DNA of 64,000 nt from IMG/VR virus record IMGVR_UViG_3300022555_000023, positions 8,095 to 72,094 of that record; one strand, given 5' to 3'. This document shows positions 1,116-38,306 of this stretch, in pieces. Positions within the stretch are counted from its first letter, which is position 1. Every line of letters starts with the position of its first letter. The notes beneath the pieces are model-generated. The model had not been told where the DNA came from, did no database searches, and was given only the letters and a program-made list of their open reading frames with translations. This DNA comes from a virus (lineage: Duplodnaviria > Heunggongvirae > Uroviricota > Caudoviricetes). The position numbers were made by a program, and so were the translations under genes.

Positions 1116-1124
1116 GATACCACC

Positions 1125-1646: not shown

Positions 1647-1664
1647 GGCGGTCTCCTTTGATAT

Positions 1665-3203: not shown

Positions 3204-3231
3204 GACGATTCTCCTTTGTAAGATCATTTGA

Positions 3232-4299
3232 TTAGACAATACCCTGCAGCACGGCTGCTGTGCGTCCAACCATAGACGCGATGGTGACTCCAATCGGGTT
3301 CAGTAGCTGGCCCGCGTTCTTGGTTCCGCCGTTGGGCAGGATGACCCAATACGGATCGGTGCCCGCTGCTGGTGCGGCTATGCCAAGAATCTTACAGAAG
3401 TTGTAGGGACCGATGAGACCCGTAAGACCCAGACCGTTCGGGATGCCGGCGGCGGTCGGTGCTGTGCCGGTAATCGCCCGGTAGCACATGTAGGTGCTGC
3501 CGTTTGTCGCAAGCATCCCAGGAACGTAGGACGTACCGCCCGCGTAGGCTCCGGGCGAACCGATACTGGTCGTGGCCGTGATGCTGGTCAACCACCGCAT
3601 CGTGGTGTTGGGGTTGCCCCAGTCCTTGATGTTGTAAGCCTCGCTGTACTGAGCCAGACTTCCGCCCGTCGTCAGCAAGGTTCCAGGCTGGCGAGCGTTA
3701 CCGGACACTCCGTAGCCGTCGCTGACACCCTGCGAAACGTTGGGTCCGAAAAGCTGGGAGGTCTGACCTGCGGCGATGTTCTGCACGTCAACCCGCACCT
3801 GATCGAGGACGTCCACCACCGTACCGTAGACCGCCCGCAGTCCGATGACCGCACCCGTGCCGCTGCTGGCCGCACCGGAGGAGTTGACAGCCGTGGTCGT
3901 GGCGAAGCCCGCCTTGTATCCCGTACCGGGAACCAAGGGCAAGACGGCGGTCACACCGCCCGTCGCGCTGATTCTGGCCACCACCACCTTGCCGCCCGAC
4001 GCCCCGGTCTGCACCAGGGTCAGGATGTCGCCGATGCGGTAGTTCTGCCCCGCACCGCCCGGCTGTGTGGCAGCCTTGGCCCAGGGTAGAAGGTCCGAGC
4101 CTGACGTCAGCACCGCCCGTCGAAACGGCTTCTTGTAGAAGGCGTCGATGGCCGCGTACTGCGTGGCCGAGATGTAGCCCGCTGTCGTGCCCGGCCCAGT
4201 GTACATGAGGCGGGCCATTCGCAGCAGGGCGAACTGGAAGTAGCGAATCTTCCGCCGCGGCGGCATTTCGCTGGACTGGTAGGTCTTCAATGTGGCCAT
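3232..4299 (-). CDS. Putative virion structural protein of 355 aa. Gly-, Thr-, Ala- and Ser-rich and fibre-like. No family assigned.
   Basis: Long ORF in the operon. Low-complexity G/T/S-rich composition is typical of fibre or capsid-associated proteins. The call rests on position and composition only. Confidence 0.5.
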   Translation of the reverse strand: MATLKTYQSSEMPPRRKIRYFQFALLRMARLMYTGPGTTAGYISATQYAAIDAFYKKPFRRAVLTSGSDLLPWAKAATQPGGAGQNYRIGDILTLVQTGASGGKVVVARISATGGVTAVLPLVPGTGYKAGFATTTAVNSSGAASSGTGAVIGLRAVYGTVVDVLDQVRVDVQNIAAGQTSQLFGPNVSQGVSDGYGVSGNARQPGTLLTTGGSLAQYSEAYNIKDWGNPNTTMRWLTSITATTSIGSPGAYAGGTSYVPGMLATNGSTYMCYRAITGTAPTAAGIPNGLGLTGLIGPYNFCKILGIAAPAAGTDPYWVILPNGGTKNAGQLLNPIGVTIASMVGRTAAVLQGIV

Positions 4300-4320
4300 T
4301 GTAATGGTGCTCCGTATGGT

Positions 4321-4824
4321 TTACTGAACTTCGGCGTCCGCCGTGCCGGTGACACGCGCTTGCAGGCCCGCTTCCCGCATGGCACGCACCACGCGTGCCC
4401 CGCAGTCGATGATCACGATCATAGCGTCCGTCTCAATGCGGGCCTGTGCGCCATTTCGCGAGACGGTTTGTTGAATTGCGTAGGTGTCCGTTGACCGGCG
4501 ACGCAGAGTGGCCAGGGTGCGTTCCAACGCGTGCAGCCTGTTCACAATGGTCGGATCCGGTTCGGGCACGCTGCCCACCACCGTGGGATCGCCGAAGCGG
4601 CGTCGCAGGAGGATGCCCTGCATTTCCCAGATGGCTCGGGCCAATTCCGCCGTGCGGCTTGCCAGGCCATCACCTGTGGCGATGTCCTCGATATCGGCGA
4701 GGAGGACGTCAAGGACAGCCTCGTCGGGATATGGCGTGCGGGGCGGCGGAGTGTATTGCGGCTGCTCGCGGATGATGCGACGGCGGCTGCTGGTGTTCGT
4801 TGTTGATTCGGCTACTTCTGGCAT
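4321..4824 (-). CDS. Hypothetical protein of 167 aa
   Basis: ORF in the operon. Its N-terminus contains SSRRRII, a weak resemblance to the RRRIQT tag. Confidence 0.5.
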   Translation of the reverse strand: MPEVAESTTNTSSRRRIIREQPQYTPPPRTPYPDEAVLDVLLADIEDIATGDGLASRTAELARAIWEMQGILLRRRFGDPTVVGSVPEPDPTIVNRLHALERTLATLRRRSTDTYAIQQTVSRNGAQARIETDAMIVIIDCGARVVRAMREAGLQARVTGTADAEVQ

Positions 4825-4863
4825 TTCGGAAATCTCCTAATTCGGCTTCGGATGATCGCGGGC

Positions 4864-5613
4864 TTATTTGCCCGCCTTGTGCTGCTCCCATGCAGCTTTG
4901 TTGACGTAGTACTGGCTGTGCTCATGCACGCTTGGCGACTGCCCCTTGGGCGTGACCAGCACCTGATTGTTTTGGGATCGCGTCGCGCTGCCACCGGCGG
5001 GATTGTGCTCGACGTAATCGCCTGCGGGAAGATGACCCGCGTAGGGCACACCGGCCTGATATCCGTGCGACGGGATTTTGCCGGCGGGAACGGTGACGGC
5101 TGACGCGAGCTTTGTTGCTTCGGCGTCGTGATTGGCCGCCTCTTCGAGATGACCCTTGACCTTGTTCTGATACTCCCGCTTGTTCTCCTGCCACTTTTCT
5201 AATGGCTCGTAACCTTCATCCTCGTACCGTGACGCGGGGTATGGAACCTTGGGGGCGGCTGGGAAATCGTCGAGGGCCTCGTTGATGACACTGGCCGCAC
5301 GCCGGTTCAAGTCGGCTGCGGTCTTATGGGCCTCGGGCGTGTTCTTATCGTAAGCATCGTTCGTGGCGTCGATGGCCTTATCGGAAGCCTTATCGGGATC
5401 GCCGCCGTCCGTGTACTGATTGCCGCGAAACTTGTGGCCGGCAACATCACCCAGAACCAGGTCACCGCCACGAAGGTTATCATGACTCAAGGTCATGTCG
5501 GAAGCGTGGCCCGGCTTGATTCCCAAAAAGGTGTCAATGGTCTTGTTCAGGCTCGACATGATGTTACCTATGATACGATATGACGCAGCAGCACTGCAAG
5601 GGCTTAACTGCAT
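4864..5613 (-). CDS. Hypothetical GNQY-motif protein of 249 aa (LVLGDVAGHKFRGNQY near residue 45)
   Basis: The ORF and motif are coded at 5413-5466. A sigma-70-like promoter and a ribosome-binding site lie upstream. Confidence 0.7.
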   Translation of the reverse strand: MQLSPCSAAASYRIIGNIMSSLNKTIDTFLGIKPGHASDMTLSHDNLRGGDLVLGDVAGHKFRGNQYTDGGDPDKASDKAIDATNDAYDKNTPEAHKTAADLNRRAASVINEALDDFPAAPKVPYPASRYEDEGYEPLEKWQENKREYQNKVKGHLEEAANHDAEATKLASAVTVPAGKIPSHGYQAGVPYAGHLPAGDYVEHNPAGGSATRSQNNQVLVTPKGQSPSVHEHSQYYVNKAAWEQHKAGK

Positions 5614-5649
5614 TGACTTCCATAATACACGGTTGGGGCAATCTTAGCG

Positions 5650-5695
5650 ATACCATTACTTTTCTCATTTTACAATGATCTAAGTATGATCAACC
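5650..5695 (-). promoter_or_regulatory. Candidate sigma-70-like promoter on the minus strand (TTGATC, about 15 nt, then TAAAAT) in the 76-bp gap upstream of 4864..5613
   Basis: This is an AT-rich island in otherwise GC-rich DNA. The hexamers were read by eye. The spacing is short. Confidence 0.25.
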
Positions 5696-8600
5696 CTTGG
5701 CATGCTGCTCAGCTTGGCGACGATAGAATCGTGCCCGACCGAAGTGATTACTCGCTCGGTTCGTGCTGCCGGCAGCTCGGTGCTTCACGGCAGAATCGGC
5801 AAACGCCTCAGATGCCCTGACTGCCAACGAGGCTTTCTCGCCCGGTGATGCCGTGGATGCTCGGTACGCCTTGCCCGCCTGCTGGGCCGTCTTCATGGCC
5901 GCGTCAGCACGCTCCTGCATGGCCGCGTAAGCTGGATGATCCTTGAGCTTGCCCTTGCGGTCTTCAAACTCGTGGTCGCTGGCCCCGTGCTCGTGCAGGT
6001 GCATGAAGGCCATCAGGGCTCGGGCCTGCTCGTCATGGTCTTCGGTTCCGGGCTGGTCTCCGACCGCCTCGGCCAGCTTGGCGGCCTTCATGTGCTTCAC
6101 CGCGGCATCGCCCAGGCGGTTGCCGATCCAGTGGTGCATGGAATCCTCGATGTCGGGCGTCAGGGCCTGCGGCGGTCCACCGTGGTGGTGGGCGTTCATG
6201 GCCTCGCCCGCAGCTATGCGGGCGGCGTAGTCGGCCTGCTCGTACTGGATAGCCTTCTTCGCGTCGGGCTCCTTGGGCTGGCCAGCACTGTACTGATTGC
6301 CGCGGAATTCATGCCCCGCAACGTCACCAAGCTCCAGCGGCACATCCAGACTCAACCGAGCGTCGCGGGGGCGGCGGGGAGGATGGGCTTCAGCCTGGGC
6401 CTTGGCCGCGTTATCTCGCAGGGCCTGCATCCTGCCGGCGGATGGCAGTCTGACCACGTGCTCGCCTGCTCCGCGTATGCGTCGCGATTCCTCCTCGTGT
6501 TCGCGAGCCGCAGAGATTGCTGCCTTCTGGGCGGCGTGGTGCATGCTGGCGAACTCCAGGCTGACGTCACTGCCGTCTTCTTCATGATGCTGGGCGGCGA
6601 GAACATGACCTTTAGCAGCCTTCTGGAACTGCTCGGCGGCCTTATCATGATCTGCCGCCGCACCGGAGGCAATGGCTTTCTTCGCCGTCACCAGGGCCAC
6701 GTTGTTATCGCTGGTCGACGCGATGCTCTTGGCTAGTGCGCCCTTCTGCACCGTACCGGCTAGGGGGAACAACTTATAGTTCCGGATGGCGGCGTTAGCC
6801 TTGGCAGATGATTCTGTTGCCGTGAACTGGTTGCCATGAAACGCGTGCCCTGCGACGTCACCAAGCTCGATAGGTAGATCATGACTCAGGCCCTTGATCT
6901 GGAAATCATTCTGACGGCCCTGCACGTTGGCATTGTGAGCATCCCCGTACTTGCGACCATGCTCGTCATCATCTTCCGGGTTCCAGCCGGCGGCAATGGC
7001 CTGCCTACGCATCTCATCTGCCTGGAGACTCATGCGTTTTCCCTGAGCCATCGAAGTATGACGTGTTGCCAGGTCTTCCAGCTTCTCAGGATCATTGGCA
7101 GCACTCTTCGCCACGGGCAAACCACGGTTCTCATACACGCCCCGCACGGTTCTGCCGACAGCCGCAGCCTCCCTCAGATGACCCGCAGCATCGAGATGAT
7201 GCTGTATGGCCTCGGGTGTATCCCCGGCAGCCAGAGCCCGTGATGCTGCTTGTCCAGCCTGCGTTGTATGGTACTTGTGCTCAACGTAGGCTGACATACT
7301 TACATCATTTGCCGCCGCGTGCGTATCATCATGAAGTTGCTGAGCTGCCGTGACTGCATTGCTTTGCGCTACCGCCGGCAATGCAGTCAAATCTGTCTGG
7401 GGACGGTCATGATACGGCTCGATCATATTCTTACCCACGCTTTGCTGCGGGTTTATGGGCAGTCCCGCATCGTGCGTGATCACAACAGCATTGCCGCGGT
7501 CTTCGACGACCCGGAAGTCACGAGCATCATCTCCGGGATCCTGCCACTCCGGTTTGATGGCTACCCGCTGGCCTGCCAGGTACTGGCCGTGCTGCTCGGC
7601 GGCTCCCTCCAGATACTTAGCCGTCTCAATATGCTCTCGTGCCGCCATTCTGTGCTGGCCGCGTTCAAGCTGGGTCAGCCTTGGTGCCTCAGAGGCATTC
7701 GCATGACCTTCGGCGGCGTCGCGACAACGTGATGCTGCGGCAGAATACAGGCCGTCCTTGACGAGACGCTTCGCATCATCTGAAGCGTCCACATGACGTT
7801 TGCCAGCCCGTGCGCCCTTCGTACTGTTGGTGGCGTCACTAGCCTTCTTCACAGCATCAACGGCTCCCTGGTGCGTGTACTGATTCCCGTGGAACTCGTG
7901 ACCTGCAACGTCACCAAGCTCAAGATCAATATTTAGGCCATGACCTAAATTTAGGTCATCGGCTAACGCGGTGTCAGTTTGGCTCATGGCCATATCCTCT
8001 GGTTTGGTACTTCCAGTCCAAGACTGGAGATGATGGTTCGCCAGTTCCTGTAGGGCCTCGCCGGCAGAGCGACAGGCGTCGGCGGCGTCTTCATGATATG
8101 AATCGTGACCATCGGAACTGTTCAGGTCAGCATCGTTGTGCAGGTCGGCTGTGTGATGATACTCGTTCGCAGCCCTCGCACAGGCTTTGAAAGCAGCGTC
8201 GTTCGACCGGCCCGAGGCTGACTCCTTCAGGGCGACCACGGCTGCCGTGTTGGCCGCACCGTGTGCGTCGCGTGCGGCTGCTCCGCGGCGACCGGGCGGT
8301 GAGCCAATGGCTTCCTTGCTGGCCTTGGCGGCGTAGTCTACGGCCTCCTGTGCGGTCGCGGCGAACCTCCCACGGGCGTCCCGTTCCTGGCCCTCGCCGT
8401 GGCTGGCCCGCAGATCTCCCCGCAGGGCGGTAGCTCCGTCGCCAACAGCGTCGTCCTTGGGCTGGCACGTCTGGCCGCAGGTCGGGCACTTACCATCCTG
8501 ACACGCACCCTTGCAGGCCGGGCAGGTGGCATCCTGGCTCAATGCGGCGTCCTTACCGCCACCGATGAGAACCGGGTGTCCGTTGATCGTGACCCAATGA

Positions 8601-9469
8601 GCATCGTCCGGAAGTTTGGATCCGGCGTTGTGCGTGCGGGCCTTCACGCGGTGCTGGGATGCTGCATCGGACAGGCCCGCCTTCTCGGCCTTGCGGGCTG
8701 CGTCATTCCGGTCTAGATAAGCGTTCCTGTGCGCCCGCCGCAGGTTGACCAGATTGCCGTGGGACGGATCCGCACGGTGGGCGTCCTCGGCGGATTTGAC
8801 CTGGGACGCACGACGGTCGGCCCGTGCAGATGCCGTGGCGTGCTTCTTCAGGTTGCCAGCCTTTTCCTTTTCGGCCTTCTTGGCAGCTTCGGCCTTCGCC
8901 TTATCATCTGCAACCTTTTTATCGGCGGCGGCCTTCTCCCTGGCCAGTCGTTGGCTGCGGGCCACGAAGCCCTCCTGTGGAGTCTGGGCGAGATTTCTGC
9001 GGCCCACGTTAAGAACGCGTCCAATAGCACGGTCGCCAAACACGTTCGTGTTCCAGGCCCCGCCCCGTCCGCGGTTGCGGCCCGCGTCGGTTCGGTCCTT
9101 GACGAACTTCTGCCAGTGCTTCTTGTCGGCTGCGGACATCATATCATGGGAGATCTCGTGATGCCCGCCGGGGTTGGCCTCCTGGTCATGCATCATATCG
9201 TATGCATGGTCGGCAGACTTGGCCGGGCCGTACAGGTTACCTTCTGATATTCCGGGCTGCTCGATGTAGTCGCTGTGGAAGTCGCTGCCCATCTCCGACC
9301 GCATGCGGTCGGCTTTATCTTCATCGGGATAAGGTGCGACGGCGCAGTACCATTTGCCCTTCTCGGGTTCAAAGACCACGCAGTCCCGCTGCACGGACAG
9401 AATCAGGGCGGGCATCTCAACGGGGATATCTAGGGCTGACATGATACATCCTTGGTTAGCGGCGGGCAT
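5690..9469 (-). CDS. Giant hypothetical protein of 1259 aa with three copies of the GNQY motif (coded near 7876-7930, 6822-6878 and 6291-6338). Rich in Ala, Lys, Glu, Asp and His, with coiled-coil-like stretches and a Cys cluster CPACKGACQDGKCPTCGQTC.
   Basis: This is the longest ORF in the window. The repeats are spaced roughly 300 aa apart. The composition resembles internal virion proteins, ejection proteins or tape-measure-like proteins. The function is unknown. Confidence 0.75.
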   Translation of the reverse strand: MPAANQGCIMSALDIPVEMPALILSVQRDCVVFEPEKGKWYCAVAPYPDEDKADRMRSEMGSDFHSDYIEQPGISEGNLYGPAKSADHAYDMMHDQEANPGGHHEISHDMMSAADKKHWQKFVKDRTDAGRNRGRGGAWNTNVFGDRAIGRVLNVGRRNLAQTPQEGFVARSQRLAREKAAADKKVADDKAKAEAAKKAEKEKAGNLKKHATASARADRRASQVKSAEDAHRADPSHGNLVNLRRAHRNAYLDRNDAARKAEKAGLSDAASQHRVKARTHNAGSKLPDDAHWVTINGHPVLIGGGKDAALSQDATCPACKGACQDGKCPTCGQTCQPKDDAVGDGATALRGDLRASHGEGQERDARGRFAATAQEAVDYAAKASKEAIGSPPGRRGAAARDAHGAANTAAVVALKESASGRSNDAAFKACARAANEYHHTADLHNDADLNSSDGHDSYHEDAADACRSAGEALQELANHHLQSWTGSTKPEDMAMSQTDTALADDLNLGHGLNIDLELGDVAGHEFHGNQYTHQGAVDAVKKASDATNSTKGARAGKRHVDASDDAKRLVKDGLYSAAASRCRDAAEGHANASEAPRLTQLERGQHRMAAREHIETAKYLEGAAEQHGQYLAGQRVAIKPEWQDPGDDARDFRVVEDRGNAVVITHDAGLPINPQQSVGKNMIEPYHDRPQTDLTALPAVAQSNAVTAAQQLHDDTHAAANDVSMSAYVEHKYHTTQAGQAASRALAAGDTPEAIQHHLDAAGHLREAAAVGRTVRGVYENRGLPVAKSAANDPEKLEDLATRHTSMAQGKRMSLQADEMRRQAIAAGWNPEDDDEHGRKYGDAHNANVQGRQNDFQIKGLSHDLPIELGDVAGHAFHGNQFTATESSAKANAAIRNYKLFPLAGTVQKGALAKSIASTSDNNVALVTAKKAIASGAAADHDKAAEQFQKAAKGHVLAAQHHEEDGSDVSLEFASMHHAAQKAAISAAREHEEESRRIRGAGEHVVRLPSAGRMQALRDNAAKAQAEAHPPRRPRDARLSLDVPLELGDVAGHEFRGNQYSAGQPKEPDAKKAIQYEQADYAARIAAGEAMNAHHHGGPPQALTPDIEDSMHHWIGNRLGDAAVKHMKAAKLAEAVGDQPGTEDHDEQARALMAFMHLHEHGASDHEFEDRKGKLKDHPAYAAMQERADAAMKTAQQAGKAYRASTASPGEKASLAVRASEAFADSAVKHRAAGSTNRASNHFGRARFYRRQAEQHAKG

Positions 9470-12475: not shown

Positions 12476-13177
12476 TTACGCCAGCCTGTACTTCGTGAAC
12501 GTCCAGAAGGTCTCGAACAATGGGCAGTAGCGGCAGAACCTGTGAAACTCCGCCGTAGCCTCGTCCTGGAGAAGCCTGATGATTCTGGTTTCAGACTTCG
12601 ACTTGTGCTCGCCGGTTTGTGATATGACCCACTTGCCGCGGAAGGCCCGCGCTAGATTGAGCCTGTAATCCTCGGATGCATGAGTCGGCTCGACAGTCAT
12701 ATCATCAAAAACAACGTCGTACTTGTCGGCGTTCTCGTACAAGTATCGGAACGCGTCACCTACGTTCACGTGCAGCTTGTGGGCCTCGCCGTTAAGGCTT
12801 ATGGGAAAGTGCCGCCGGCAAACGTCGAGAACCTCGCTATCAATCTCACAGCATGTGACTCGTGCCACGTTGGGCAGGTCGCATAGCTCGGCTGCCAGGC
12901 TGCCGTCGCCTCCGCCCATGATCAAGACCCGCATGTGATCCATGTCGGGCAGCAGGTCGAGCATAGCCCGATCATACTCAGTATCACTGTTGGCCGACAT
13001 AACATCGTCGCCCACGATGAGGGTCTTGCCATGAGCCTCATGATCCATGACCCTAATGATCTGAAAAGGCGACTTGCGCTCTTCGAGAATTCCAGAGAAC
13101 TTGTACCTGACCGGCCCGACGCGGTCTTCACTGTAGATAGTCAGGGATAATCCGTCATCGTCCCACTGTGAGTTCAT
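12476..13177 (-). CDS. speE: Spermidine synthase-like polyamine aminopropyltransferase (PABS fold) of 233 aa
   Basis: Matches the PABS family: VLIMGGGDGSLAAEL against VLIIGGGDGGVLREV, KSPFQIIRVMD/HEAHGKTLIVGD against SPFQ..GKVLVLDG, and YDVVFDDMT against FDVIIVDS. Confidence 0.75.
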   Translation of the reverse strand: MNSQWDDDGLSLTIYSEDRVGPVRYKFSGILEERKSPFQIIRVMDHEAHGKTLIVGDDVMSANSDTEYDRAMLDLLPDMDHMRVLIMGGGDGSLAAELCDLPNVARVTCCEIDSEVLDVCRRHFPISLNGEAHKLHVNVGDAFRYLYENADKYDVVFDDMTVEPTHASEDYRLNLARAFRGKWVISQTGEHKSKSETRIIRLLQDEATAEFHRFCRYCPLFETFWTFTKYRLA

Positions 13178-13718
13178 TTGTCTTTCCTGTCAGGTCATCG
13201 TGAGGTGCATCCCGATACAGGAAGTTAACTTTCCTGAACTTGGGCTTGAATCGTTCGTCGATCATCTTCAGGACGACCGACTGGTCATACGGCTTGCACG
13301 AGAAGATATCGAAGTACATGCTGCCGATGCGGTTGTCGCCGTGCATGGAGATGTTACTGGTTGTGATAAGCTGTAACGCACTCCAGCCACCATCGGAATC
13401 CGTGCCGAAGTTATACAGGAACGGCTCGCCCACGGCGGTCATCTTGATGGCCGCGACCAGATCCTTGATGAACTTCTTGATCTGCTTGCCGTCGTCGATG
13501 TTCTTGTTGCAGCCGGAGCAGTCCACCATCATGTGAAAGCCCCAATGCTCCTTGCCGTCTTCGCCCGTGAACAGATCATTTCGGGGATCGCGTTTGAGGT
13601 CGACTACGGGCGACTCGGGAATCGCGGCGGCATCTACGGGAGCGTCGCCCTGGGCCAGTTTGAGGTCGGCCTCGCGACCAGGCCGCAGGGACAGGAAAGA
13701 ATTCAGTTCGTGGTTCAT
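13155..13718 (-). CDS. speD: S-adenosylmethionine decarboxylase proenzyme (pyruvoyl-dependent, SpeH/SpeD-like) of 187 aa
   Basis: HMMVDCSGCN (GxHxxxDxxGC) and LITTSNISMHGDN against the ESHISIHTWPE self-cleavage site region. It is adjacent to the aminopropyltransferase. Confidence 0.7.
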   Translation of the reverse strand: MNHELNSFLSLRPGREADLKLAQGDAPVDAAAIPESPVVDLKRDPRNDLFTGEDGKEHWGFHMMVDCSGCNKNIDDGKQIKKFIKDLVAAIKMTAVGEPFLYNFGTDSDGGWSALQLITTSNISMHGDNRIGSMYFDIFSCKPYDQSVVLKMIDERFKPKFRKVNFLYRDAPHDDLTGKTNELTVGR

Positions 13719-16607: not shown

Positions 16608-16850
16608 TTATTTCAGATCTTTCATCCAAAGATCATACTCTAACGCCACGTCGCGGTACTGCCTATGAAAGTGTTCCACGCTTTCGGCATCCCGCAGTTC
16701 GCTTGCGATCTGCATAGCACAAATGTTCCTGATCATTCGCAGATGGTAACCGATTACGCGTCGCAGTTGTTTGCACGCTTTGATCAACTGCCACGCACAT
16801 GCCAGGTTGATGAACGCGGCGGCGATAAAAACGAACCACATAACGGTCAC
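16608..16850 (-). CDS. Small membrane protein of 80 aa
   Basis: N-terminal transmembrane segment MTVMWFVFIAAAFINLACA. ATGA overlap. Confidence 0.45.
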   Translation of the reverse strand: MTVMWFVFIAAAFINLACAWQLIKACKQLRRVIGYHLRMIRNICAMQIASELRDAESVEHFHRQYRDVALEYDLWMKDLK

Positions 16851-17599
16851 AGTTCACCACCGTTGGGCAGATTCTGGATGCGTCGTCGCTTCGGGCGTAA
16901 CTGCGGAGCAGTCGCACCAGGCGGGTCACGCAGATTGGGAATGCACGGCTCTTGGTCGATTTGCCGAATGCTGGCAAAAACGGCGGGCGGTATCTGCATC
17001 GCACGCATCACTCGCTGTTCTAACTCACGCATCTCCTCGGTGATATCTCGGGCTCGCGGCGTATTGGGGTTGCGCGGCTCACACGTCGGCCCAGTTGGTA
17101 CGACGTAGCGAAGATCGAGGGCGTCTTCAATACTACCGCCGTTGTGGACGCTTGGAATGACCGCGACCACCGAATCATGCATTGGGGCCGCTGTATAGCG
17201 GTGCCGATCCATCGCGTCGCGGAACGGCTCCATCGCTTCAAACGCACCATTCAGTGCCGTATCCAGGCCCGTACCAGCGAACACGTCCATCAGGGTGCGG
17301 CCCTGCGGCGGGTCTCGCAGTTCGGGCGGCTCAGGCCGCGGCGTTGCGCTCTGCACAGCCCACCGTAGACAATGCAAAGAGTTGATCATACAACTGCTCC
17401 ATCCCGATGGTGACGACGGATCAGGACTTGAATGTCTGATCACAGCTTCGCCCGCTTCCTTCAGAGCATCGCGATGCTGGGTGATGCGGGCGACGAAGTT
17501 GACCAGTTCATGATACTCCTCAGACGACGCATGGTTGCGTCGGGCTTGGTTGTAATTCCCCAGCAGTCTGTCCAGCGTTCGTCGTTCGTCTTGCGTCAT
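16847..17599 (-). CDS. Hypothetical protein of 250 aa ending in the C-terminal tag RRRIQNLPNGGEL
   Basis: ORF. The tag is coded at 16850-16888. Confidence 0.55.
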   Translation of the reverse strand: MTQDERRTLDRLLGNYNQARRNHASSEEYHELVNFVARITQHRDALKEAGEAVIRHSSPDPSSPSGWSSCMINSLHCLRWAVQSATPRPEPPELRDPPQGRTLMDVFAGTGLDTALNGAFEAMEPFRDAMDRHRYTAAPMHDSVVAVIPSVHNGGSIEDALDLRYVVPTGPTCEPRNPNTPRARDITEEMRELEQRVMRAMQIPPAVFASIRQIDQEPCIPNLRDPPGATAPQLRPKRRRIQNLPNGGEL

Positions 17600-18111: not shown

Positions 18112-18963
18112 TCATAGTTCACCACCTTCACCCACGGGATTGTCGATGAAGTCCAGAAACTGTCGGCGTTGGTGGCCAGTCATGCTGCGAACTTGGTCTA
18201 CTGTCCAGCCATAGTATTCAGCCAGGCGTAGCTCGATGCAATCCTCGGGCGGTCGCAGGCCGATCATTACGATGTCCCACACGTTAGTGTTGTTGTTTCC
18301 GTTGCGGCCAACCAGCATGACCGTGCCCAGGGATAAGCTGCGTCGGACCGTGCTGGGCGACTCGCGGCCCGCACGAATGTTCTCCACGATGACTCCAGTA
18401 TCACGCACCTTGATCCGCACGCCAGACGGCTCCATACGGTCGGACATCAGCATCATGGCGTGTGCTTCGCCCAGTGGCCGCAGTTCCTCCAGCAGCACGC
18501 ACGACAGTATCTGGCTATATGAATCCGACCGCCGTCTGGTGAAGCATGACGTCATTTTGCGTCGTTCGACTGTTCTCGTGATTCGGAGTCGCTCCGGACG
18601 CTGCCGAACGTCATTGATCTCGATAACGATGAGGTTTTCTACAGTGCCACGATCACACCGCGGGTTAAATCGTGGGTCAGCAAACGTATTGCGATAACGT
18701 GGGTTTGGGTAGTTCTCATTCACGAGAGCATCACGACCATCGGAGAAACAGATCTCAGTCTCGGTTATGATCACCAAGTTTCGCGGCCCGCCAAAGTTGG
18801 ACCAGGCACATCGTAGCTCGACATCGTAGACTGACGGCACGCGTCCACCGACCAGAAGCGGCCTGATGTACATAACCAGGGCATTGACGTTGTGGCCCAG
18901 GCTGTCGGCGATGACCTTCATCATCACCTTGCCCGCCTTCGTGATCACGAGCATACCCGTCAT
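18112..18963 (-). CDS. Hypothetical protein of 283 aa with internally duplicated halves. The C-terminus ends ...GEGGEL.
   Basis: ORF. Confidence 0.5.
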   Translation of the reverse strand: MTGMLVITKAGKVMMKVIADSLGHNVNALVMYIRPLLVGGRVPSVYDVELRCAWSNFGGPRNLVIITETEICFSDGRDALVNENYPNPRYRNTFADPRFNPRCDRGTVENLIVIEINDVRQRPERLRITRTVERRKMTSCFTRRRSDSYSQILSCVLLEELRPLGEAHAMMLMSDRMEPSGVRIKVRDTGVIVENIRAGRESPSTVRRSLSLGTVMLVGRNGNNNTNVWDIVMIGLRPPEDCIELRLAEYYGWTVDQVRSMTGHQRRQFLDFIDNPVGEGGEL

Positions 18964-27840: not shown

Positions 27841-28133
27841 GGCTTCTCCGCCTTCATGCTGATCACGCAGAACGACTCGCTGCGGGAAATCTGGCCACCG
27901 TTCTGATAGTTGAACTTGTGGTACAAAATATGATGCCCCTGCCAGTCGAAGGTAGACCAGCCGTTGCCCACCTCGCGGACGTTCGTCGCTCCCGTGGGAA
28001 GGGTGTCACTGGTCGGGGCCACCGTGGTTTCGCCGCAGCCGATACATAAAACCAGCAGGGCTAGAGCTAGAAGTCGTTTCATGTTTGGATCCTCCTTCGC
28101 GTTGGGGTGGCAGGGGCCGCTGTTTGGCCCCAC
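27837..28133 (-). CDS. Lipoprotein of 98 aa (signal peptide with lipobox LVLCIGC)
   Basis: MKRLLALALLVLCIGCGE. Confidence 0.55.
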   Translation of the reverse strand: MGPNSGPCHPNAKEDPNMKRLLALALLVLCIGCGETTVAPTSDTLPTGATNVREVGNGWSTFDWQGHHILYHKFNYQNGGQISRSESFCVISMKAEKP

Positions 28134-28474
28134 AGGCGGTCAAAGTCACTGGCCAGCCGTTCTATCGACCTGCGGGCGACGGGCTCACGTGCGGCCACAG
28201 GCGGCGTCACAGCGGGTCGTGACGGGGCCTGGGCTGGCGTTCGGGTAGTTAAGGCCGATACATCGGCCAGGGGCTTGTCCCAGGCGGGCAAACCGGCGTC
28301 TTCCTCGCCCCACGGCAAATGGCCGGGAGCCTCGCCGGTCTCGGACCTCGTGTACTGGCCGAACTTGTCCCGAACCATGACCACCGGCGGCCCAGACTTA
28401 TTTATGAGCCCGTGGAAGATGATCTCGGCAGTAGCTTGGTCGATGTCGTGCATGGTGCTTTCAATACTGGACAC
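28079..28474 (-). CDS. Hypothetical protein of 131 aa ending ...PTRRRIQT (C-terminal tag)
   Basis: ORF. Confidence 0.45.
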   Translation of the reverse strand: MSSIESTMHDIDQATAEIIFHGLINKSGPPVVMVRDKFGQYTRSETGEAPGHLPWGEEDAGLPAWDKPLADVSALTTRTPAQAPSRPAVTPPVAAREPVARRSIERLASDFDRLWGQTAAPATPTRRRIQT

Positions 28475-31283: not shown

Positions 31284-32711
31284 TTACTTCACGGCCTCGG
31301 CGGTCTTGACCGCAGCCTTGGCCTTCGCGGGCGGCACGTCCGCTGTGGGCATCGACAATAGCATGGTTGGCCCTGCACCGCTGCTGCCGTTCATTAGGTA
31401 CACCGGCATGCGGCCATCCCAGGTCTCCAGCATGCGGCTCTGGATTTCAAGCTGCTTCAGCATCAGGTACGCCTGCGGGTTCTCCTGAAGTTTCTGTAGC
31501 TCATACGCCTTGGCGTCGGCGACAGCCTGGATGCCCTTGGCTTCGCCCTGCTTGATGGCCAGCACCTTGGCTGCCTCGCCCTCGCCCACGGCCTGCAAAG
31601 CCTTCTTACGCTCCGTGGCGGCTTCCTGTTCGGCCTTGGCGACGTTCTTGTCCTGCTGCTGCTGGAAGACCTTGTCAATGGATGTCTGGATGTTAGGATT
31701 TGCGTAGGTCAAACCACCCTTCATACCAATGCTTGTGATGGTAATTCCTCGCTCGACGAAGTACTTCTGAGCCTCGTCTCGCATCGCCTTCAGGAACTCG
31801 GTCTTCCTATTGCGACCTTCATCCATCGTGTACTTGGCCGCCTCGTCGGAGAAAACCCGCTGGAGAACGGCTCGCACCTCGGTATCCATGACGTCTTCAA
31901 GCCCTACGGTCTTAACGACGTAGTCATCCTTGTATCCGCCGCCCGCCTTGATGACCCTATCCTTGTTCGCCGGATAGTTGAAGAAGAACTTAACCGCGTC
32001 TTCCTCAGTCAGAATACGGGCAACGATGGAGATGCCGCAGGAGAAGTTCACCGAATCACTGGACTCGACGTCAATGGCCTGGTCCCTGAACGACGTTCCT
32101 GTGTGCGGGGCTGCGGTCCACTCTCGCGTACATGGAACGCGATCTACAATGAAAACCTGAGCGTCGGGGATAAACTTGCCGTTGTTCCAACCATGACCCA
32201 TGTCCTGCCAGCGGTACGGAATAAGGATGCGCTTCGACTGCACCCAGGGTTTGCCCTCGGCAGTCTGCTGAATGAACATCTGCGTGGTCTTCGTCGCCGT
32301 TTGCTTGCTGTTGTCCTCCTTCTTCACCATGAATGCCGTCTCGGAATTACCGACATCGACGAAGACCGGAGTATCGTAGGGCGACTGACACCCACCGACA
32401 AGCAATAGCAGCAACAACGCTGGTGACATACTGGTCGCAAAGGTTTTGCCCGCCTTCGTGGCGCGCTTCAGTTCGGGCATGAAGGTCAGCAAGGTCAGCA
32501 GGGAGAACGAAGTCCAGATGATCGTGCCTGGGTACTGCTTGGCGACTTGCCAGAATCGCATGTTCTGCTGCTCATGCCGGGAGCGACTGTGATCAAGCTG
32601 GTTGTAAGCCATTTGGTCGTTCACCTCCGGAACGACAGCGTAGTGCCAGTAGCTGTGAGCCACCAATGCAGCCACGAACATGAATCCTATCAGAAACACT
32701 TTTGCAAACAT
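31284..32711 (-). CDS. Membrane or lipoprotein with an SPFH/band-7 (stomatin, prohibitin, HflK/C-like) domain, 475 aa
   Basis: Central SPFH-like core (VKTVGLEDVMDTEVRAVLQRVF...ITITSIGMKGG) and an Ala/Glu/Lys coiled-coil tail. Two N-terminal transmembrane segments. An internal MSPALLLLLLVGGC segment looks like a lipoprotein signal, so this may be two genes or an alternative start. Confidence 0.55.
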   Translation of the reverse strand: MFAKVFLIGFMFVAALVAHSYWHYAVVPEVNDQMAYNQLDHSRSRHEQQNMRFWQVAKQYPGTIIWTSFSLLTLLTFMPELKRATKAGKTFATSMSPALLLLLLVGGCQSPYDTPVFVDVGNSETAFMVKKEDNSKQTATKTTQMFIQQTAEGKPWVQSKRILIPYRWQDMGHGWNNGKFIPDAQVFIVDRVPCTREWTAAPHTGTSFRDQAIDVESSDSVNFSCGISIVARILTEEDAVKFFFNYPANKDRVIKAGGGYKDDYVVKTVGLEDVMDTEVRAVLQRVFSDEAAKYTMDEGRNRKTEFLKAMRDEAQKYFVERGITITSIGMKGGLTYANPNIQTSIDKVFQQQQDKNVAKAEQEAATERKKALQAVGEGEAAKVLAIKQGEAKGIQAVADAKAYELQKLQENPQAYLMLKQLEIQSRMLETWDGRMPVYLMNGSSGAGPTMLLSMPTADVPPAKAKAAVKTAEAVK

Positions 32712-33428: not shown

Positions 33429-33626
33429 TTATCTCCTGGTTTCACGTTTGTCCCGCACTAGACGCCGGCGGTCGGTCGAAACTGGATCGGCCTTGCGTCG
33501 TTCTTTGGCCCTGGTGGCTCGACGGGCGTCCCGCCACCATACCATACGATGATACGTTACGTCTATAAACACCACCAGCAGTAGACCCAGGCCACCACCT
33601 ATCATCACGCACATGATCTCACGCAT
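33429..33626 (-). CDS. Small membrane protein of 65 aa
   Basis: MREIMCVMIGGGLGLLLVVFI. Confidence 0.4.
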   Translation of the reverse strand: MREIMCVMIGGGLGLLLVVFIDVTYHRMVWWRDARRATRAKERRKADPVSTDRRRLVRDKRETRR

Positions 33627-34609
33627 TACAGTTCTCCCGTGGACTGAATCCTTCGTCGCACGACGGTTCGCTTGCCGCGTGTAATCTTTCTTCGTTTGAC
33701 TGGTTCCGGACCAAGACGGTTCAACGTCCAGCCGACCGGCAGGACGATGCCATGCTCGGTTTCTCTGTCCATCAGGCCGGCAAGTATCGTGATAGCCAGT
33801 TGGCTGTTGCTGACAACTCGGCTGCCCTGGCGAGACTCACCGGGCGGGTATGTCAGCACCCATATCACGCGGTCGGTATTTGCCTCGACGTGGGCAATAA
33901 TACGTTGTTCAGCATTAACGAACGTTCGCGGCAGCGTGTAGCCCACGGGAAGCCGCTGGACGTTCGGCTCGGCGGGCGTCACCTGGCTGTGGGATCGCAG
34001 TCGTCGCAGATCGGCTTCTGTAATATAGGGCTGATGTTGCTGCTCAACTGCTGCTTCCAGTCGGCGTATAAACTCCGCTCGCGGTACGTCACCACGACCG
34101 AAAAGGTTGCTGAATGACATCGCGTCAGCGTGTGCGCTCGAATAGTTACTGTCCTGCGTCAGCAAGCTGCCCGGTATTCCCAGCGACTCATTAGCCCGCC
34201 GTGCGGCGTCGGTGGTAACAGCGGCTATGGCCTCGGGCGTCGGTGGTGGCGGTGTTGGCCCCAAGCGATGCTGTCGCCGCTCGGGTGGCCGGGCTCCATA
34301 CATAGGCGGAATATCCAGTCGGGATCCACGTCGACGGGCTTCGATGATGTTGGCCGCATGACCGTAGTCCTCACGGTTCCGCTGCGGGTAGAGATGAATA
34401 ATACTGTCAGTATCACTAATCTGCTGACCAAACGGCAGCCCTTCCTGAATAACGATGTATTCTCCGGTTCGCAGGCCGTAGAGGGACACAAGGTGCATGG
34501 CGTCGATGAAATGGCGGTCGCCGTCAGACATGCTGGTGACGTAGCCGGGATGCACTGCGTACCGCGGCCCGTTCATCGGTTCAGGATTGTTTGGGTTCTG
34601 CTGTGGCAT
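33626..34609 (-). CDS. Hypothetical protein of 327 aa ending in the C-terminal tag RRRIQSTGEL. Paralogue of 37026..37583.
   Basis: N-terminal (GEYIV) and C-terminal (WVLTYPPGESRQGSRVV..LAITILAGL) blocks are shared with 37026..37583. Confidence 0.55.
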   Translation of the reverse strand: MPQQNPNNPEPMNGPRYAVHPGYVTSMSDGDRHFIDAMHLVSLYGLRTGEYIVIQEGLPFGQQISDTDSIIHLYPQRNREDYGHAANIIEARRRGSRLDIPPMYGARPPERRQHRLGPTPPPPTPEAIAAVTTDAARRANESLGIPGSLLTQDSNYSSAHADAMSFSNLFGRGDVPRAEFIRRLEAAVEQQHQPYITEADLRRLRSHSQVTPAEPNVQRLPVGYTLPRTFVNAEQRIIAHVEANTDRVIWVLTYPPGESRQGSRVVSNSQLAITILAGLMDRETEHGIVLPVGWTLNRLGPEPVKRRKITRGKRTVVRRRIQSTGEL

Positions 34610-34764: not shown

Positions 34765-35211
34765 TCACGGCTTCACCGCAATCTGTCGTTCCAATTCGTG
34801 GATACGGGCCTGGGCCTGCCGGTACAGCTCAACCGGCACGGTCGTGGGGTCGACCTTCACCGCCCGGTTCTGGAGACGCTGAATGGCTCGCAGATCTTCC
34901 AGGCTTTTGTCGCGGCGACGATTGAGAATGGCACGAAGCTGAAAGTTCTCATCCTTGATCTCCTCCAGAGCCTCGACCAAGGGTATGCCGCCGTACTGCA
35001 AGGTCACGCCCGCCAGGAGCCCTTCCAGTTCCTCGATGCGGTTACGGGCGGCCTGAGCCATCTCGGAGCAGTGTGCCCCGTACAACGGCCCCTTGCGGGC
35101 GATCTCGGCCAGGGCTTGCAAGAGAAGTTCGTTAGCTTCATCTACCGGATCGGCATTGTCGATGGGCGGTTCCACGGCGTTTCTCCTTTTGGGCCAGCAC
35201 ACGGCGGCCAC
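34765..35211 (-). CDS. Coiled-coil protein of 148 aa
   Basis: ORF rich in Leu, Glu and Ala. Confidence 0.45.
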   Translation of the reverse strand: MAAVCWPKRRNAVEPPIDNADPVDEANELLLQALAEIARKGPLYGAHCSEMAQAARNRIEELEGLLAGVTLQYGGIPLVEALEEIKDENFQLRAILNRRRDKSLEDLRAIQRLQNRAVKVDPTTVPVELYRQAQARIHELERQIAVKP

Positions 35212-35255: not shown

Positions 35256-35693
35256 TTAACCAGACACTGCACTTCTATCACGGTAATGTACTTTGCGATG
35301 ACAGTTTGAACAAAGCACTATGCACTTCCGAACCTCGGCTATGATTAGATCAATGGGAACACTAGTATTTATCATGTGCCTAACGCTATCAACTTTCTCG
35401 CCAGTAACATGATGAAAATCTAAACACGCAATATGCGTTTCCCCACACGAGCATCTATCAACACCGAGCACAGCAAGTAGACGTAACTTCATGTTCTCGC
35501 TACGCTTCCGATAACGTATACGACATGATTCCCGTGCATAGCTCGTTCTTACATAAATCCTCGCAGCCTCTCTTCGGCATGATAGACACGTGGATACGGG
35601 CCGACCGCGTGACATACAGAAGTTGCCCGTAATCGGTTTAGTGTACCCACATTTAGCACATCGCTTCGTTGCTATTTTCTGTCGTTCAACCAC
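35256..35693 (-). CDS. HNH endonuclease of 145 aa
   Basis: N-terminal CAKCG...CLSC zinc finger and LDFHHVTGEK...NTSVP...LCSNCHRKVH, an HNH ββα-Me motif. Confidence 0.6.
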   Translation of the reverse strand: MVERQKIATKRCAKCGYTKPITGNFCMSRGRPVSTCLSCRREAARIYVRTSYARESCRIRYRKRSENMKLRLLAVLGVDRCSCGETHIACLDFHHVTGEKVDSVRHMINTSVPIDLIIAEVRKCIVLCSNCHRKVHYRDRSAVSG

Positions 35694-35822
35694 GACTGTT
35701 CTCCAAACGCCGCCCGCCCCACCAGCAGAAGTAGCCGCGAAGTTAGATCGCTGGTGGGGCGTTTGGCGTGTACGGGAGTTCGCGGCTACCGTCGAGTTAA
35801 CAACTCAGTATAGCTTATCATA

Positions 35823-36005
35823 TCAAACAGTACAACACATATCCACGGTTCGGCGTTGCAGCAACTCATCCAGACACCGCGACTCAAATCGAGACACCCG
35901 TATCATCTGCCTGAATCGCAGTCCGTAGACACTGTCCCAGATATAGGCCATGTCCCAGCCGTACTTGGCCGTATCCCGCAGGATTTGTAGCTGCCGGCGG
36001 GTCAT
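35823..36005 (-). CDS. Hypothetical protein of 60 aa
   Basis: ORF. Confidence 0.3.
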   Translation of the reverse strand: MTRRQLQILRDTAKYGWDMAYIWDSVYGLRFRQMIRVSRFESRCLDELLQRRTVDMCCTV

Positions 36006-37114
36006 ATCGTGTCATGCACCGTGCGTTTGCCGGCCTTGCGGTCGTGATACTGAGCTTCTATCCAAGCAAATGTTCGTGCCAGGCCGACGCGGAACGATGT
36101 CCGTGGCTGCCAGCCCAGGTAGTGCTGAATCATCGTGTTGTCGCTGTTGCGACCAGCCACACCCTTGGGGGCACTGAGATCGTACAGTCGCTTCAGCTTC
36201 ACGCCTCCGATTTCCTCGGCGATATCCACCAAGTCATTGACAGAGATCGACTCATTGGATCCGAGGTTGATGGGCGTCGCGATAAGATCACTGCATTGCG
36301 TAATACGGTCGATGCCGTCCAGACAGTCCTCGATCCACATGTAGCTGCGATTCTGCGTGCCGTCGCCCCATATCGTGATCTCGTGCTTGCCGGTTTCCCT
36401 GGCCTCGATCACCTTGCGGCAGATAGCTGCTGGTGCCTTCTCACGGCCACCGTCCCACGTGCCGTGCGGGCCGTAGACGTTGTGGAAGCGGGCGATGAAG
36501 GTCTTCATGCCGCGTTCGGCCCAATACTCCTGACAGAACATCTCCGAGAGGAGCTTCTCCCAGCCGTAACCACGCTCCGCCATCGCGGGGTAGGCATCAG
36601 TCTCCTTCAGTGCCAGGCACTCGGCAGTCTTCTGCAAGTTGATGTTGTAGGCACAGGCTGACGATGAGTAGAAATACTTCTGGCAACCAGCACGCCAGGC
36701 GGCTTCGATCATGTGAGTATTAATCAACACGCTTCGCAGGCACTGGATACGGAACCTCTCGATGAAGCCCATGCCACCCATATCGGCTGCCAGGTTGTAG
36801 ACTGCGGTCGCGCCCTCACATACGCGATGGCAGTTCTCCTCGATGCTCACATCAAGACTCAGGTTCTCGACGCCGTCGCTGACCTGATACCAGTCGGGCA
36901 GTGGCTTCTTATCCACAGCCCTGATGTGAACATGACCTTTCTCGTTAAGTCGTCGCACTAATGATCCGCCGATGAACCCACCGGACCCTGTAACCACAAT
37001 CACGTCGCTCACGCTTAATTTCTCCTTAGATTTCACCACTATCGGGTAATGTTTGAATACGTCGCCGCACCGGCCTGGGTGCGTCTTCCATCGCTGGCGT
37101 CCATAACTGGCCAC
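36002..37114 (-). CDS. GDP-mannose 3,5-epimerase homologue (NAD-dependent SDR epimerase/dehydratase family) of 370 aa
   Basis: Rossmann motif VTGSGGFIGGS. There are long stretches of identity to plant GME recalled from memory: NLAADMGGMGFI, FYSSSACAY, LKETDAYPA, YGWEK (YxxxK), RFHNVYGPHGTWDGGREKAPAAICRK, IWGDGTQNRSY and GVAGRNSDNTMIQHYLGWQP. Confidence 0.75.
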   Translation of the reverse strand: MASYGRQRWKTHPGRCGDVFKHYPIVVKSKEKLSVSDVIVVTGSGGFIGGSLVRRLNEKGHVHIRAVDKKPLPDWYQVSDGVENLSLDVSIEENCHRVCEGATAVYNLAADMGGMGFIERFRIQCLRSVLINTHMIEAAWRAGCQKYFYSSSACAYNINLQKTAECLALKETDAYPAMAERGYGWEKLLSEMFCQEYWAERGMKTFIARFHNVYGPHGTWDGGREKAPAAICRKVIEARETGKHEITIWGDGTQNRSYMWIEDCLDGIDRITQCSDLIATPINLGSNESISVNDLVDIAEEIGGVKLKRLYDLSAPKGVAGRNSDNTMIQHYLGWQPRTSFRVGLARTFAWIEAQYHDRKAGKRTVHDTI

Positions 37115-37583
37115 CGTTGGTTTCGATCCACTGCGGAATCACAGGCGGACCTACGCTCTCCAGCCGCCATCCTATTTCACCAGGCTCGGAGGCAGGAAGG
37201 GCTACACCCACCGGCCAGCGGTCGCAGCTTTCCAGGGCCTGTAGTATTTGAACCGATAATTCACAGTTTTCGACTTCCCTGCCACCCTGATAAGATCTGC
37301 CGGGCGGATAGTACAGCACCCAGGCACGCTGGTTCGACGGGCAGGCTGCGGCGATTGCCGACTCTGGCCTGTTCGTGTGCCGCCGGCGGTCGATCCACTC
37401 CCGCATCTTCTGGTAGGCTTCACTCGATGGCAACACGCTCAGATACACGCAGTCACCTACATAATTGGCTGTTGGCATGAATACGTCGTATTCACCAACC
37501 ACCAAACCGTAGTTCTGCACTAGCATACGGGCTTCGGTTATGTCACCGTTCCGTTGCGGGCATATTATATAGTGACTCGGCAT
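37026..37583 (-). CDS. Hypothetical protein of 185 aa ending in the C-terminal tag RRRIQTLPDSGEI. Paralogue of 33626..34609.
   Basis: ORF whose 3' end overlaps the GME start by 89 nt in another frame. Confidence 0.5.
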   Translation of the reverse strand: MPSHYIICPQRNGDITEARMLVQNYGLVVGEYDVFMPTANYVGDCVYLSVLPSSEAYQKMREWIDRRRHTNRPESAIAAACPSNQRAWVLYYPPGRSYQGGREVENCELSVQILQALESCDRWPVGVALPASEPGEIGWRLESVGPPVIPQWIETNGGQLWTPAMEDAPRPVRRRIQTLPDSGEI

Positions 37584-38306
37584 TTACTTCACGCCAGAAA
37601 ATACCCACGCCGACAGCCTCTGGTACGTTCCGCCGAACATATTAACGACGTGTCGAATGCCCTTCATCACCACCTCGCTGGCAAACGTCCACACGAAGCT
37701 CCAGGGCCACAGGGTCACCCAGGCCACGAGCCTCTTGCGGTTCGGAGCGAACGACGGCGGCTGAATGTGCGGTGGCTTGTCCTCCGACCACTTCATGCCG
37801 TAGTTATTAATGAACCGATAGGATCCGTTCTTGACCCAACCGTCCTCGGTGTTGGGGTTATCAACGTAGTGATCGTTGACGTAGTTACGTGACACGCCGT
37901 TCAGATACGCAGCGTGTGCAGCGTTATATTCCTTCAGCACCCGCTTCAGGAATATGATCCATCGGGGAAAGCTCCAGAGCATTCCAAGAACCACCCAGGC
38001 AATCGGATAAAGCACAAAGTGCCAGGGATGCTCCAGCATCAGCGGCCACAGATTGCCGAATAACAGCCAGGCCAACAGGAATGCGACCACACCGAATACG
38101 GTCCAGCCGGGAGCATCATCGTTCTCGGCACAGAAAAAGAACATGGCGGTTGCCACCACCAGCAGCAAGTAGAATGCTAGGCTGCCGAGGACAAAGATCG
38201 AGGTAAACATGACGTGTCTCCTTGTGTTAAGATTCTTCCTCGCCTTCGGTTTTGTCCGATAGGCTTTCCATCCAGCGTGCGATACCGTCTCGCTCACCAG
38301 CATCAT
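37584..38306 (-). CDS. Polytopic membrane protein of about 200-240 aa
   Basis: Multiple hydrophobic helices (SIFVLGSLAFYLLLVVATAMFFF, VVAFLLAWLLFGNLW, IAWVVLGMLW...). Confidence 0.5.
   Translation of the reverse strand: MMLVSETVSHAGWKAYRTKPKARKNLNTRRHVMFTSIFVLGSLAFYLLLVVATAMFFFCAENDDAPGWTVFGVVAFLLAWLLFGNLWPLMLEHPWHFVLYPIAWVVLGMLWSFPRWIIFLKRVLKEYNAAHAAYLNGVSRNYVNDHYVDNPNTEDGWVKNGSYRFINNYGMKWSEDKPPHIQPPSFAPNRKRLVAWVTLWPWSFVWTFASEVVMKGIRHVVNMFGGTYQRLSAWVFSGVK

Follow-up and report, generated by a model that had tools for sequence, protein, structure and literature searches.

Does the minus-strand open reading frame at 36002..37114 of the window (the whole 64,000-nt stretch of the IMG/VR virus record IMGVR_UViG_3300022555_000023 analysed here) encode a GDP-mannose 3,5-epimerase (GM35E, or GME), does it belong to a phage, and what would a phage gain from such an enzyme? 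The initial annotation had described a 370-aa GME homologue. The longest ORF at this position does have that length, and all of the peptides quoted for it are found in its translation; the length itself, as the following evidence indicates, is a longest-ORF artefact. Relatives in the PDB aligned by phmmer only from residue 39 of the 370-aa ORF onward; an in-frame GTG start at 37012 is preceded, 9 nt upstream, by the Shine-Dalgarno sequence AAGGAG (37022..37027, minus strand), as seen directly in the sequence; and the exact 336-aa product (P0001) is present in public gene calls, independently on 11 contigs. On these grounds the true gene is 36002..37012 on the minus strand, with a GTG start and a product of 336 aa, and the remaining 37013..37114 of the ORF (minus strand) is a non-coding stretch that adds 34 spurious N-terminal codons. 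The claim that the 5' end of the gene is overlapped in another frame by the gene at 37026-37583 has the same origin, since the overlap appears only when the ORF is extended to its first possible start codon. The two genes are 13 nt apart, the upstream one ending in a TAA (37028-37026) that overlaps the AAGGAG of the epimerase.

The family of the protein was examined at several levels. In Pfam it matched PF01370 (Epimerase, NAD-dependent epimerase/dehydratase; E 8e-35) and PF16363 (E 9e-18). The five top matches in the PDB were all plant GME chains (four Arabidopsis entries and one from another plant; E 8e-78 to 5e-77), covering residues 39-361 of the long ORF, and the first of them, AtGME (2c59), scored 266 bits in phmmer with an E-value of 7.9e-78. 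The next PDB family, GDP-L-fucose synthase, followed at E 5.8e-23 and 85 bits, and GalE-type entries at E 1e-17 or weaker, with no more than 68 bits; characterised GMEs, and not GalE or dTDP-sugar enzymes, are therefore the best matches. The NCBIfam collection does not include a GM35E model; its best match was GDP-fucose synthase, with 106 bits against a cut-off of 500, and all of its matches were far below threshold. Over 309 aligned residues the protein is 43% identical to AtGME. The long stretches shared with GME to which the initial annotation had drawn attention were confirmed, with the following identities to AtGME: NLAADMGGMGFI (12/12), FYSSSACAY (7/9), LKETDAYPA (7/9), YGWEK (4/5), RFHNVYGPHGTWDGGREKAPAAICRK (22/26), IWGDGTQNRSY (7/11) and GVAGRNSDNTMIQHYLGWQP (13/20).

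The active site points in the same direction. The glycine-rich NAD+ motif (GxxGxxG/A) is present as GSGGFIGG at residues 9-16 (336-aa numbering throughout), as in other members of the extended SDR family with its Rossmann fold. According to the review by Beerens, Gevaert and Desmet, GM35E is defined by eight residues that set it apart from GalE and from GMER. In AtGME numbering these are the S143/Y174/K178 triad, which serves C4 oxidation and reduction; C145 and K217, the acid/base pair of the double epimerisation; R306, which acidifies the cysteine; R243, which binds the diphosphate; and the conserved N203. The catalytic lysine separates GM35E from GMER, which has a histidine there; the cysteine is acidified by an arginine (R306) in GM35E and by a lysine in GMER; and the Cys/Lys pair is missing in GalE. 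All of the eight residues, taken as named in the text of that review, are conserved in the phage protein when it is aligned to AtGME (8/8): the [ST]...Yx3K triad as S118, Y149 and K153, the acid/base pair as C120 and K192, and the other three as R288, R222 and N178, corresponding to R306, R243 and N203, respectively. The catalytic cysteine and lysine, whose presence had been left to be checked, are thus both found, together with six further diagnostic residues.

Taken together, the scores (8e-78 for GME in the PDB against 6e-23 for GDP-fucose synthase) and the full set of diagnostic residues bear out the initial assignment as a GME homologue. [quoted passage not shown] With AtGME (PDB 2C54/2C59) the protein shares the extended-SDR fold, a nearly full-length alignment and identity at the eight diagnostic positions. 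It differs from the plant enzymes in its shorter N-terminus and in being phage-encoded, and GM35E activity is predicted for it. GDP-L-fucose synthase (GMER/Fcl/WcaG), the second-best match, is a sister NS-SDR which also acts on a GDP-hexose, with 3,5-epimerisation and a catalytic cysteine; it uses a histidine as the base and a lysine to acidify the cysteine, whereas the phage protein has K192 and R288 of the GM35E type. The enzyme of Methylacidiphilum fumariolicum (MfGM35E) is another characterised member of the family, although the comparisons given here are with AtGME. Bacterial homologues in the clade of the phage protein are annotated as GDP-D-mannose 3',5'-epimerase.

That the gene resides in a phage, as originally stated, was corroborated by the assembly to which it belongs. 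At 100% identity, the window matches parts of the ENA contig ERZ27245846:k141_83342 (192,532 bp). The ends of this contig map to positions 36517 and 36657 of the window, inside the epimerase gene, and overlap by 141 nt, the k-mer of the assembler; since the contig ends share exactly these 141 nt, the sequence indicates a circular assembly of ~192.4 kb. An intein-containing large terminase (TerL) is encoded on the same contig, 5 kb beyond the window start, and the window itself encodes a UvsX/RecA-like recombinase, a gp32-like SSB, SbcC/SbcD-like (gp46/47-like) nuclease subunits, a 5'-3' exonuclease, DNA methyltransferases, a sigma-70 region-4 protein and several HNH endonucleases. Nearly all genes lie on a single strand and most are without a family assignment. 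Phage genes lie to either side of the epimerase, in a gene order that is kept on 11-14 contigs. Because the contig encodes the large terminase together with UvsX, gp32- and gp46/47-like proteins, we assign the source to a phage; its lineage is, by these sequences, a poorly known one, and a megablast search with 15 kb around the gene found no close phage relative in GenBank. Scans of the window for tRNAs and Rfam families gave no matches. To judge by record names such as 'BUCK21' and 'WOOD18', freshwater or wetland metagenomes are its probable source.

Around the epimerase the genes are closely spaced and share one direction; from upstream to downstream they encode a 208-aa membrane protein, a 185-aa ORFan, the epimerase and a 60-aa ORF. 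The last of these (35823..36005, minus strand; no assigned function) starts with an ATG that overlaps the epimerase TGA (ATGA, 36005-36002) and is probably translationally coupled to the epimerase; no homologue of it was found near GME genes in 80 viral and 81 bacterial GME loci. Directly 3' of this ORF is a GC-rich hairpin (35707..35769, minus strand; MFE -50.5 kcal/mol, z = -3.35), the stability of which was equalled by 0/200 shuffled sequences and which likely represents the 3' end, or a stabiliser, of the epimerase transcript. Downstream of the hairpin follows a gene for a free-standing HNH homing endonuclease (35256..35693, minus strand; phrog_2255, E 1.7e-22, and HNH families), which is absent from public gene calls. 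The 185-aa ORFan (37026..37583, minus strand) ends in a C-terminal 'RRRIQ...GEI' tail and is a paralogue of 33626-34609. An exhaustive HMMER search recovered only 4 representatives of it among 1.8 billion clusters, and its AlphaFold model, built from a single sequence (pLDDT 38.3), was of too low a quality for structural comparison; nothing in the GME loci compared ties this protein to the epimerase in function.

The polytopic membrane protein had been put forward as a candidate partner of the epimerase, with coordinates of 37584-38306. Its gene is in fact 37584..38210 (minus strand, 208 aa), and the protein is confined to this phage lineage: apart from its own exact match it has six homologues, every one on a contig of a related phage. 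No family match was found for it, and its AlphaFold model (7-sequence alignment, pLDDT 56.5) was likewise too poor for a fold search. The protein was never found near GME homologues elsewhere, and in the relatives L170 and L171 it has other neighbours and no epimerase within 2 kb, so that the proposed partnership was rejected. When all window ORFs were compared by tblastn with the 80 viral and 81 bacterial GME loci, no conserved partner emerged, the epimerase itself being the sole window ORF to match.

A syntenic relative, L169, with 50-84% protein identity to the window, has a different arrangement at this position. Its membrane protein is followed by a 239-aa chimera, the first part of which matches residues 1-130 of the 185-aa protein and which then continues in frame with the motif that ends window ORF 34765-35211. 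At the corresponding position this contig, which stops 116 nt further on, has neither the epimerase nor the 60-aa ORF nor the HNH gene. A search for direct repeats around the epimerase cassette gave none of significance, and no insertion scars were identified. Because the gene is absent at the L169 position and no neighbour co-occurs with it, we regard the epimerase as an accessory gene that is specific to this lineage and has no conserved partner.

The statement that no glycosyltransferase adjoins the gene was upheld and can be extended. Families of glycosyltransferases, ManB/ManC, GMD and flippases were found neither in the 87 window proteins at E <= 0.01 nor in precomputed Pfam matches over ~70 kb of the ~192-kb genome. 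The components by which a glycan cluster is recognised (a co-located glycosyltransferase, a flippase and further nucleotide-sugar enzymes) occur at other viral GME loci but not at this one, and by these searches the epimerase appears to be an orphan auxiliary metabolic gene. Phage seroconversion modules of the gtrABC type, which modify the O-antigen, combine a flippase with a bactoprenol glycosyltransferase and a serotype-specific transferase. Such modules likewise direct a change in the host surface glycan, as is proposed here for the epimerase, but none of their components is detectable in the window, and the neighbouring membrane protein, as noted above, matches no family.

Although the initial annotation implied that a phage GME is a novelty, such genes are already published and widespread. 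A tblastn search found GM35E-type homologues in 142 GenBank phage records, mostly of T4-like cyanophages, and further homologues are present on >120 IMG/VR contigs. The full eight-residue signature is carried by the proteins of S-SCSM1 and P-TIM68 and by 67/80 of the IMG/VR homologues; the other 13/80 show S-to-T or N-to-T changes only. The flanks of viral GME genes are enriched in GT2, GT25 and GT11 transferases, FkbM methyltransferases, GMD-like SDRs, GHMP kinases and nucleotidyltransferases. In cyanophage S-SCSM1, ORF123 is a published GDP-mannose-3,5-epimerase gene that belongs to a cell-wall modification cluster of 13 genes, and was read as an auxiliary metabolic gene that modifies the cell surface or LPS (PMC9602691); besides plant ascorbate papers, this was the sole paper on a phage GME that our literature search found.

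The T4-like cyanophages (S-SCSM1, P-TIM68, S-SSM7 and others) thus encode enzymes with the same eight-residue signature as the window protein. The two differ in that the cyanophage enzymes are only 38% identical to it, which marks a separate acquisition; in that the S-SCSM1 epimerase is accompanied by GMD, GDP-fucose synthase, fucosyltransferases and several glycosyltransferases whereas the window gene is an orphan; and in the likely host, a Planctomycetota-like bacterium for the window phage versus cyanobacteria for the cyanophages. Phage genes of the GM35E type are, judging from these homologues, already common, and what differs here is an independent acquisition, from another donor and in another host lineage, of a gene that stands alone. 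The phage that carries the epimerase is more unusual than the gene.

The source of the gene can be approached through its relatives. Homologues of the phage epimerase number >8000. The nearest of them (P0002-P0004) are 80-82% identical, and P0003 and P0004 are encoded on large bacterial contigs; on one of these, 3.08 Mb in length, an 82%-identical copy is found by itself, with an S41 peptidase gene on one side and hisH/hisA on the other. The EF-G of this contig is closest to that of named Thermoguttaceae (72-74%), on which basis we attribute the contig to a planctomycete-like bacterium. More distant homologues, at 70-74%, are found in Verrucomicrobiota, Pirellulales, Acidobacteriota and Chloroflexota. 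Neighbour joining placed the phage protein inside the bacterial sequences, as sister to P0002-P0004/L002 and on a somewhat longer branch. The GC3 of the epimerase gene is 0.72, as compared to a phage mean of 0.70 ± 0.08 and to 0.88 in the donor-like gene, with which it shares 78% nucleotide identity, and the identical protein occurs on 11 contigs from several samples. The nesting among bacterial sequences, the phage-like GC3 and the 78% nucleotide identity indicate that the transfer went from a bacterium to a phage and is old enough for amelioration. This amelioration, together with the intact active site, argues for retention of the gene under selection.

What the enzyme would do in an infected cell can be outlined from the known reaction. 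Tightly bound NAD+ oxidises C4 of GDP-D-mannose by way of the Ser/Tyr/Lys triad, a proton is then taken from and returned to C5 and C3 by the Cys/Lys pair, and the 4-keto intermediate is reduced again (PMC8787198, PMC6678494). The equilibrium of GM35E favours GDP-mannose (80:15:5), and a net output of L-sugar would for this reason need a downstream sink. We consider it likely that the gene encodes a functional GM35E, captured by a large phage from a Planctomycetota-related bacterium and kept as an auxiliary metabolic gene. The epimerase would be expressed during infection and draw on the GDP-mannose pool of the host, and the L-hexose nucleotide sugars thus formed would be consumed by glycosyltransferases of the host, or by phage ones that have escaped recognition. 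The outcome would be altered envelope or extracellular glycans, and the likely benefits would be that superinfection is blocked or that progeny are kept from re-adsorbing. As no partner gene lies nearby, the phage would supply a single step only, and the role in glycans is suggested by analogy with the glycan clusters that surround other viral GMEs.

In the cell the enzyme may run in either direction, given that the closest bacterial homologues often lie in an operon that resembles one for salvage or catabolism, rather than for O-antigen synthesis. In the bacterial loci of this clade, an RfaE-II-like gene resembling sugar-1-phosphate nucleotidyltransferases follows the epimerase in 37/75 cases and a 265-aa gene without known function does so in 26/75, and LacI/AraC regulators, alpha-L-fucosidases and FGGY kinases are found nearby. 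This salvage-like context, as well as the equilibrium that strongly favours GDP-mannose, would be in keeping with an enzyme that runs mainly in reverse, converting GDP-L-galactose or GDP-L-gulose from host salvage to GDP-mannose, or that perturbs the GDP-mannose pool and so redirects carbon or stops host glycan synthesis. We nevertheless view such a role as unlikely: the phage carries none of the bacterial operon partners, the single closest homologue (L002) stands alone between housekeeping genes, and the salvage pathway is itself hypothetical, as a literature search for bacterial GDP-L-galactose salvage found no support for it.

Another scenario is that the epimerase serves glycosylation of the phage's own virion proteins or DNA, through a phage glycosyltransferase that uses GDP-L-galactose or GDP-L-gulose and has not been recognised as such. 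The gene does sit among DNA-metabolism genes, and the many phage proteins that lack a family assignment leave room for a novel transferase. There is also a precedent in the chloroviruses, which encode GDP-sugar enzymes that serve capsid glycosylation. On the other hand, none of the 87 window proteins matches a glycosyltransferase family at E <= 0.01, none of the neighbouring genes accompanies GME in other viruses, and we know of no GDP-hexose-dependent DNA glycosylation system. Moreover, L169 has no such gene at this position, so that the epimerase does not belong to a conserved module for the modification of virions or DNA. Self-glycosylation is thus quite improbable. Its more specific form, in which the orphan epimerase would feed a transferase encoded by a lineage-specific ORFan, or elsewhere in the genome, that places an L-hexose on the phage's own DNA or virion, seems to us very improbable; if true, this use of a GDP-L-sugar would amount to a novel type of phage self-modification.

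Least probable of all, the gene may be a neutral passenger of recent horizontal acquisition, perhaps tied to the HNH homing endonuclease immediately downstream, as its accessory nature, the different arrangement at the exact position in L169 and the lack of partner genes might suggest; the intact reading frame with all catalytic residues, the strong Shine-Dalgarno sequence upstream, the phage-like codon composition with only 78% nucleotide identity to the nearest bacterial copy, and the identical protein across 11 contigs from several samples argue instead for long residence under purifying selection.

A retained GM35E acting on host glycans, the preferred reading, opens no new mechanism and settles no long-standing question. 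It does extend the list of phage auxiliary metabolic genes by a GM35E of secure identity, in a lineage with almost no annotated relatives, and the protein is a further candidate biocatalyst for L-sugar synthesis. To our knowledge, the Planctomycetota-like freshwater bacteria that are the likely host group have essentially no characterised phages. For phages at large, the finding means that this L-hexose nucleotide-sugar step is gained repeatedly and independently, sometimes without a partner gene, which hints that the supply of GDP-L-galactose or GDP-L-gulose may limit a host glycan of relevance to the phage.

Several independent assemblies terminate within the epimerase gene (window 36468-36657; contigs L164 and L165, and one ENA contig). 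The breaks are the junction of the 192-kb circular contig, the end of a 9.4-kb Logan contig at 36468, and that of an ENA contig of 4 kb, which stops after epimerase codon 35. Similar bacterial genes that create conflicts in the assembly graph may explain these breaks, as may microdiversity at the locus.

Near the epimerase, a 650-nt stretch left empty by public gene calls was found to hold an HNH homing endonuclease (35256-35693, minus strand; phrog_2255, E 2e-22). Two signals lie ahead of it. One, at 35845-35817, resembles a promoter (TGGATA-17-TATGAT with a TG extension); the other is a highly stable GC-rich hairpin at 35707-35769 (z = -3.35). An SPFH/Band-7 domain protein of 475 aa is encoded 3.3 kb downstream of the epimerase (31284-32711, minus strand; PF01145; phrog_200 'lipoprotein', 7e-26).

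Five window proteins, otherwise unrelated or weakly related, have in common a C-terminal tail consisting of 'RRRIQ', zero to five residues and 'GE[LI]'; all are encoded on the minus strand (16847-17599, 18112-18963, 28079-28474, 33626-34609 and 37026-37583, the last directly upstream of the epimerase). One of the five has GGEL only and another stops at RRRIQT. The tail might serve as a tag for targeting, packaging or recognition. The products of 33626-34609 and 37026-37583 are paralogues (28% identity over ~170 residues, E 7e-10), and their family has only four representatives among the 1.8 billion protein clusters searched.

The large terminase subunit was located ~5 kb past window position 1 on the same contig (L168:17668-20433; phrog_2, 2e-16). 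An intein carrying a LAGLIDADG homing endonuclease domain splits it (Pfam Intein_splicing and LAGLIDADG_3), and the neighbouring protein, of 1676 aa, gives a weak PI3/PI4-kinase match. At window positions 1-9469, a 1259-aa protein and four neighbours (3-1115, 1125-1646, 1665-3293, 4864-5613 and 5690-9469, all minus strand) share short repeated segments of 35-88% identity, found in the 1259-aa protein at about residues 460-590, 860-900 and 1040-1130. None of the five has a match in PHROG or Pfam; they may represent a fibre or receptor-binding-type structural family with a shared module.

The syntenic relative L169 carries a 602-aa TnpB/Cas12f-like protein (L169:2593-4401; PF07282), flanked by the 5'-3' exonuclease on one side and the following conserved gene on the other; it has no counterpart in the window. 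The window itself encodes an adjacent spermidine/spermine synthase and S-adenosylmethionine decarboxylase (12476-13177 and 13155-13718, minus strand; PF01564, 3e-19, and PF02675, 1e-17), a phage-borne two-step module for polyamine biosynthesis.

In the bacterial clade closest to the phage epimerase, an unannotated ~265-aa protein is typically encoded after GME (26 of 75 bacterial loci) and is followed by a ~272-aa protein whose C-terminal half is RfaE-domain-II/cytidylyltransferase-like (37 of 75); examples are L025:11036-12723, L039:11011-12601 and ~35 more among L002-L082. Genes for regulators of the LacI or AraC type, for GH29 alpha-L-fucosidases and for FGGY kinases are close by. The whole, of which no description turned up in the literature searched, resembles a regulated module for salvage or catabolism and might be a Leloir-like pathway for L-galactose via GDP-L-galactose.
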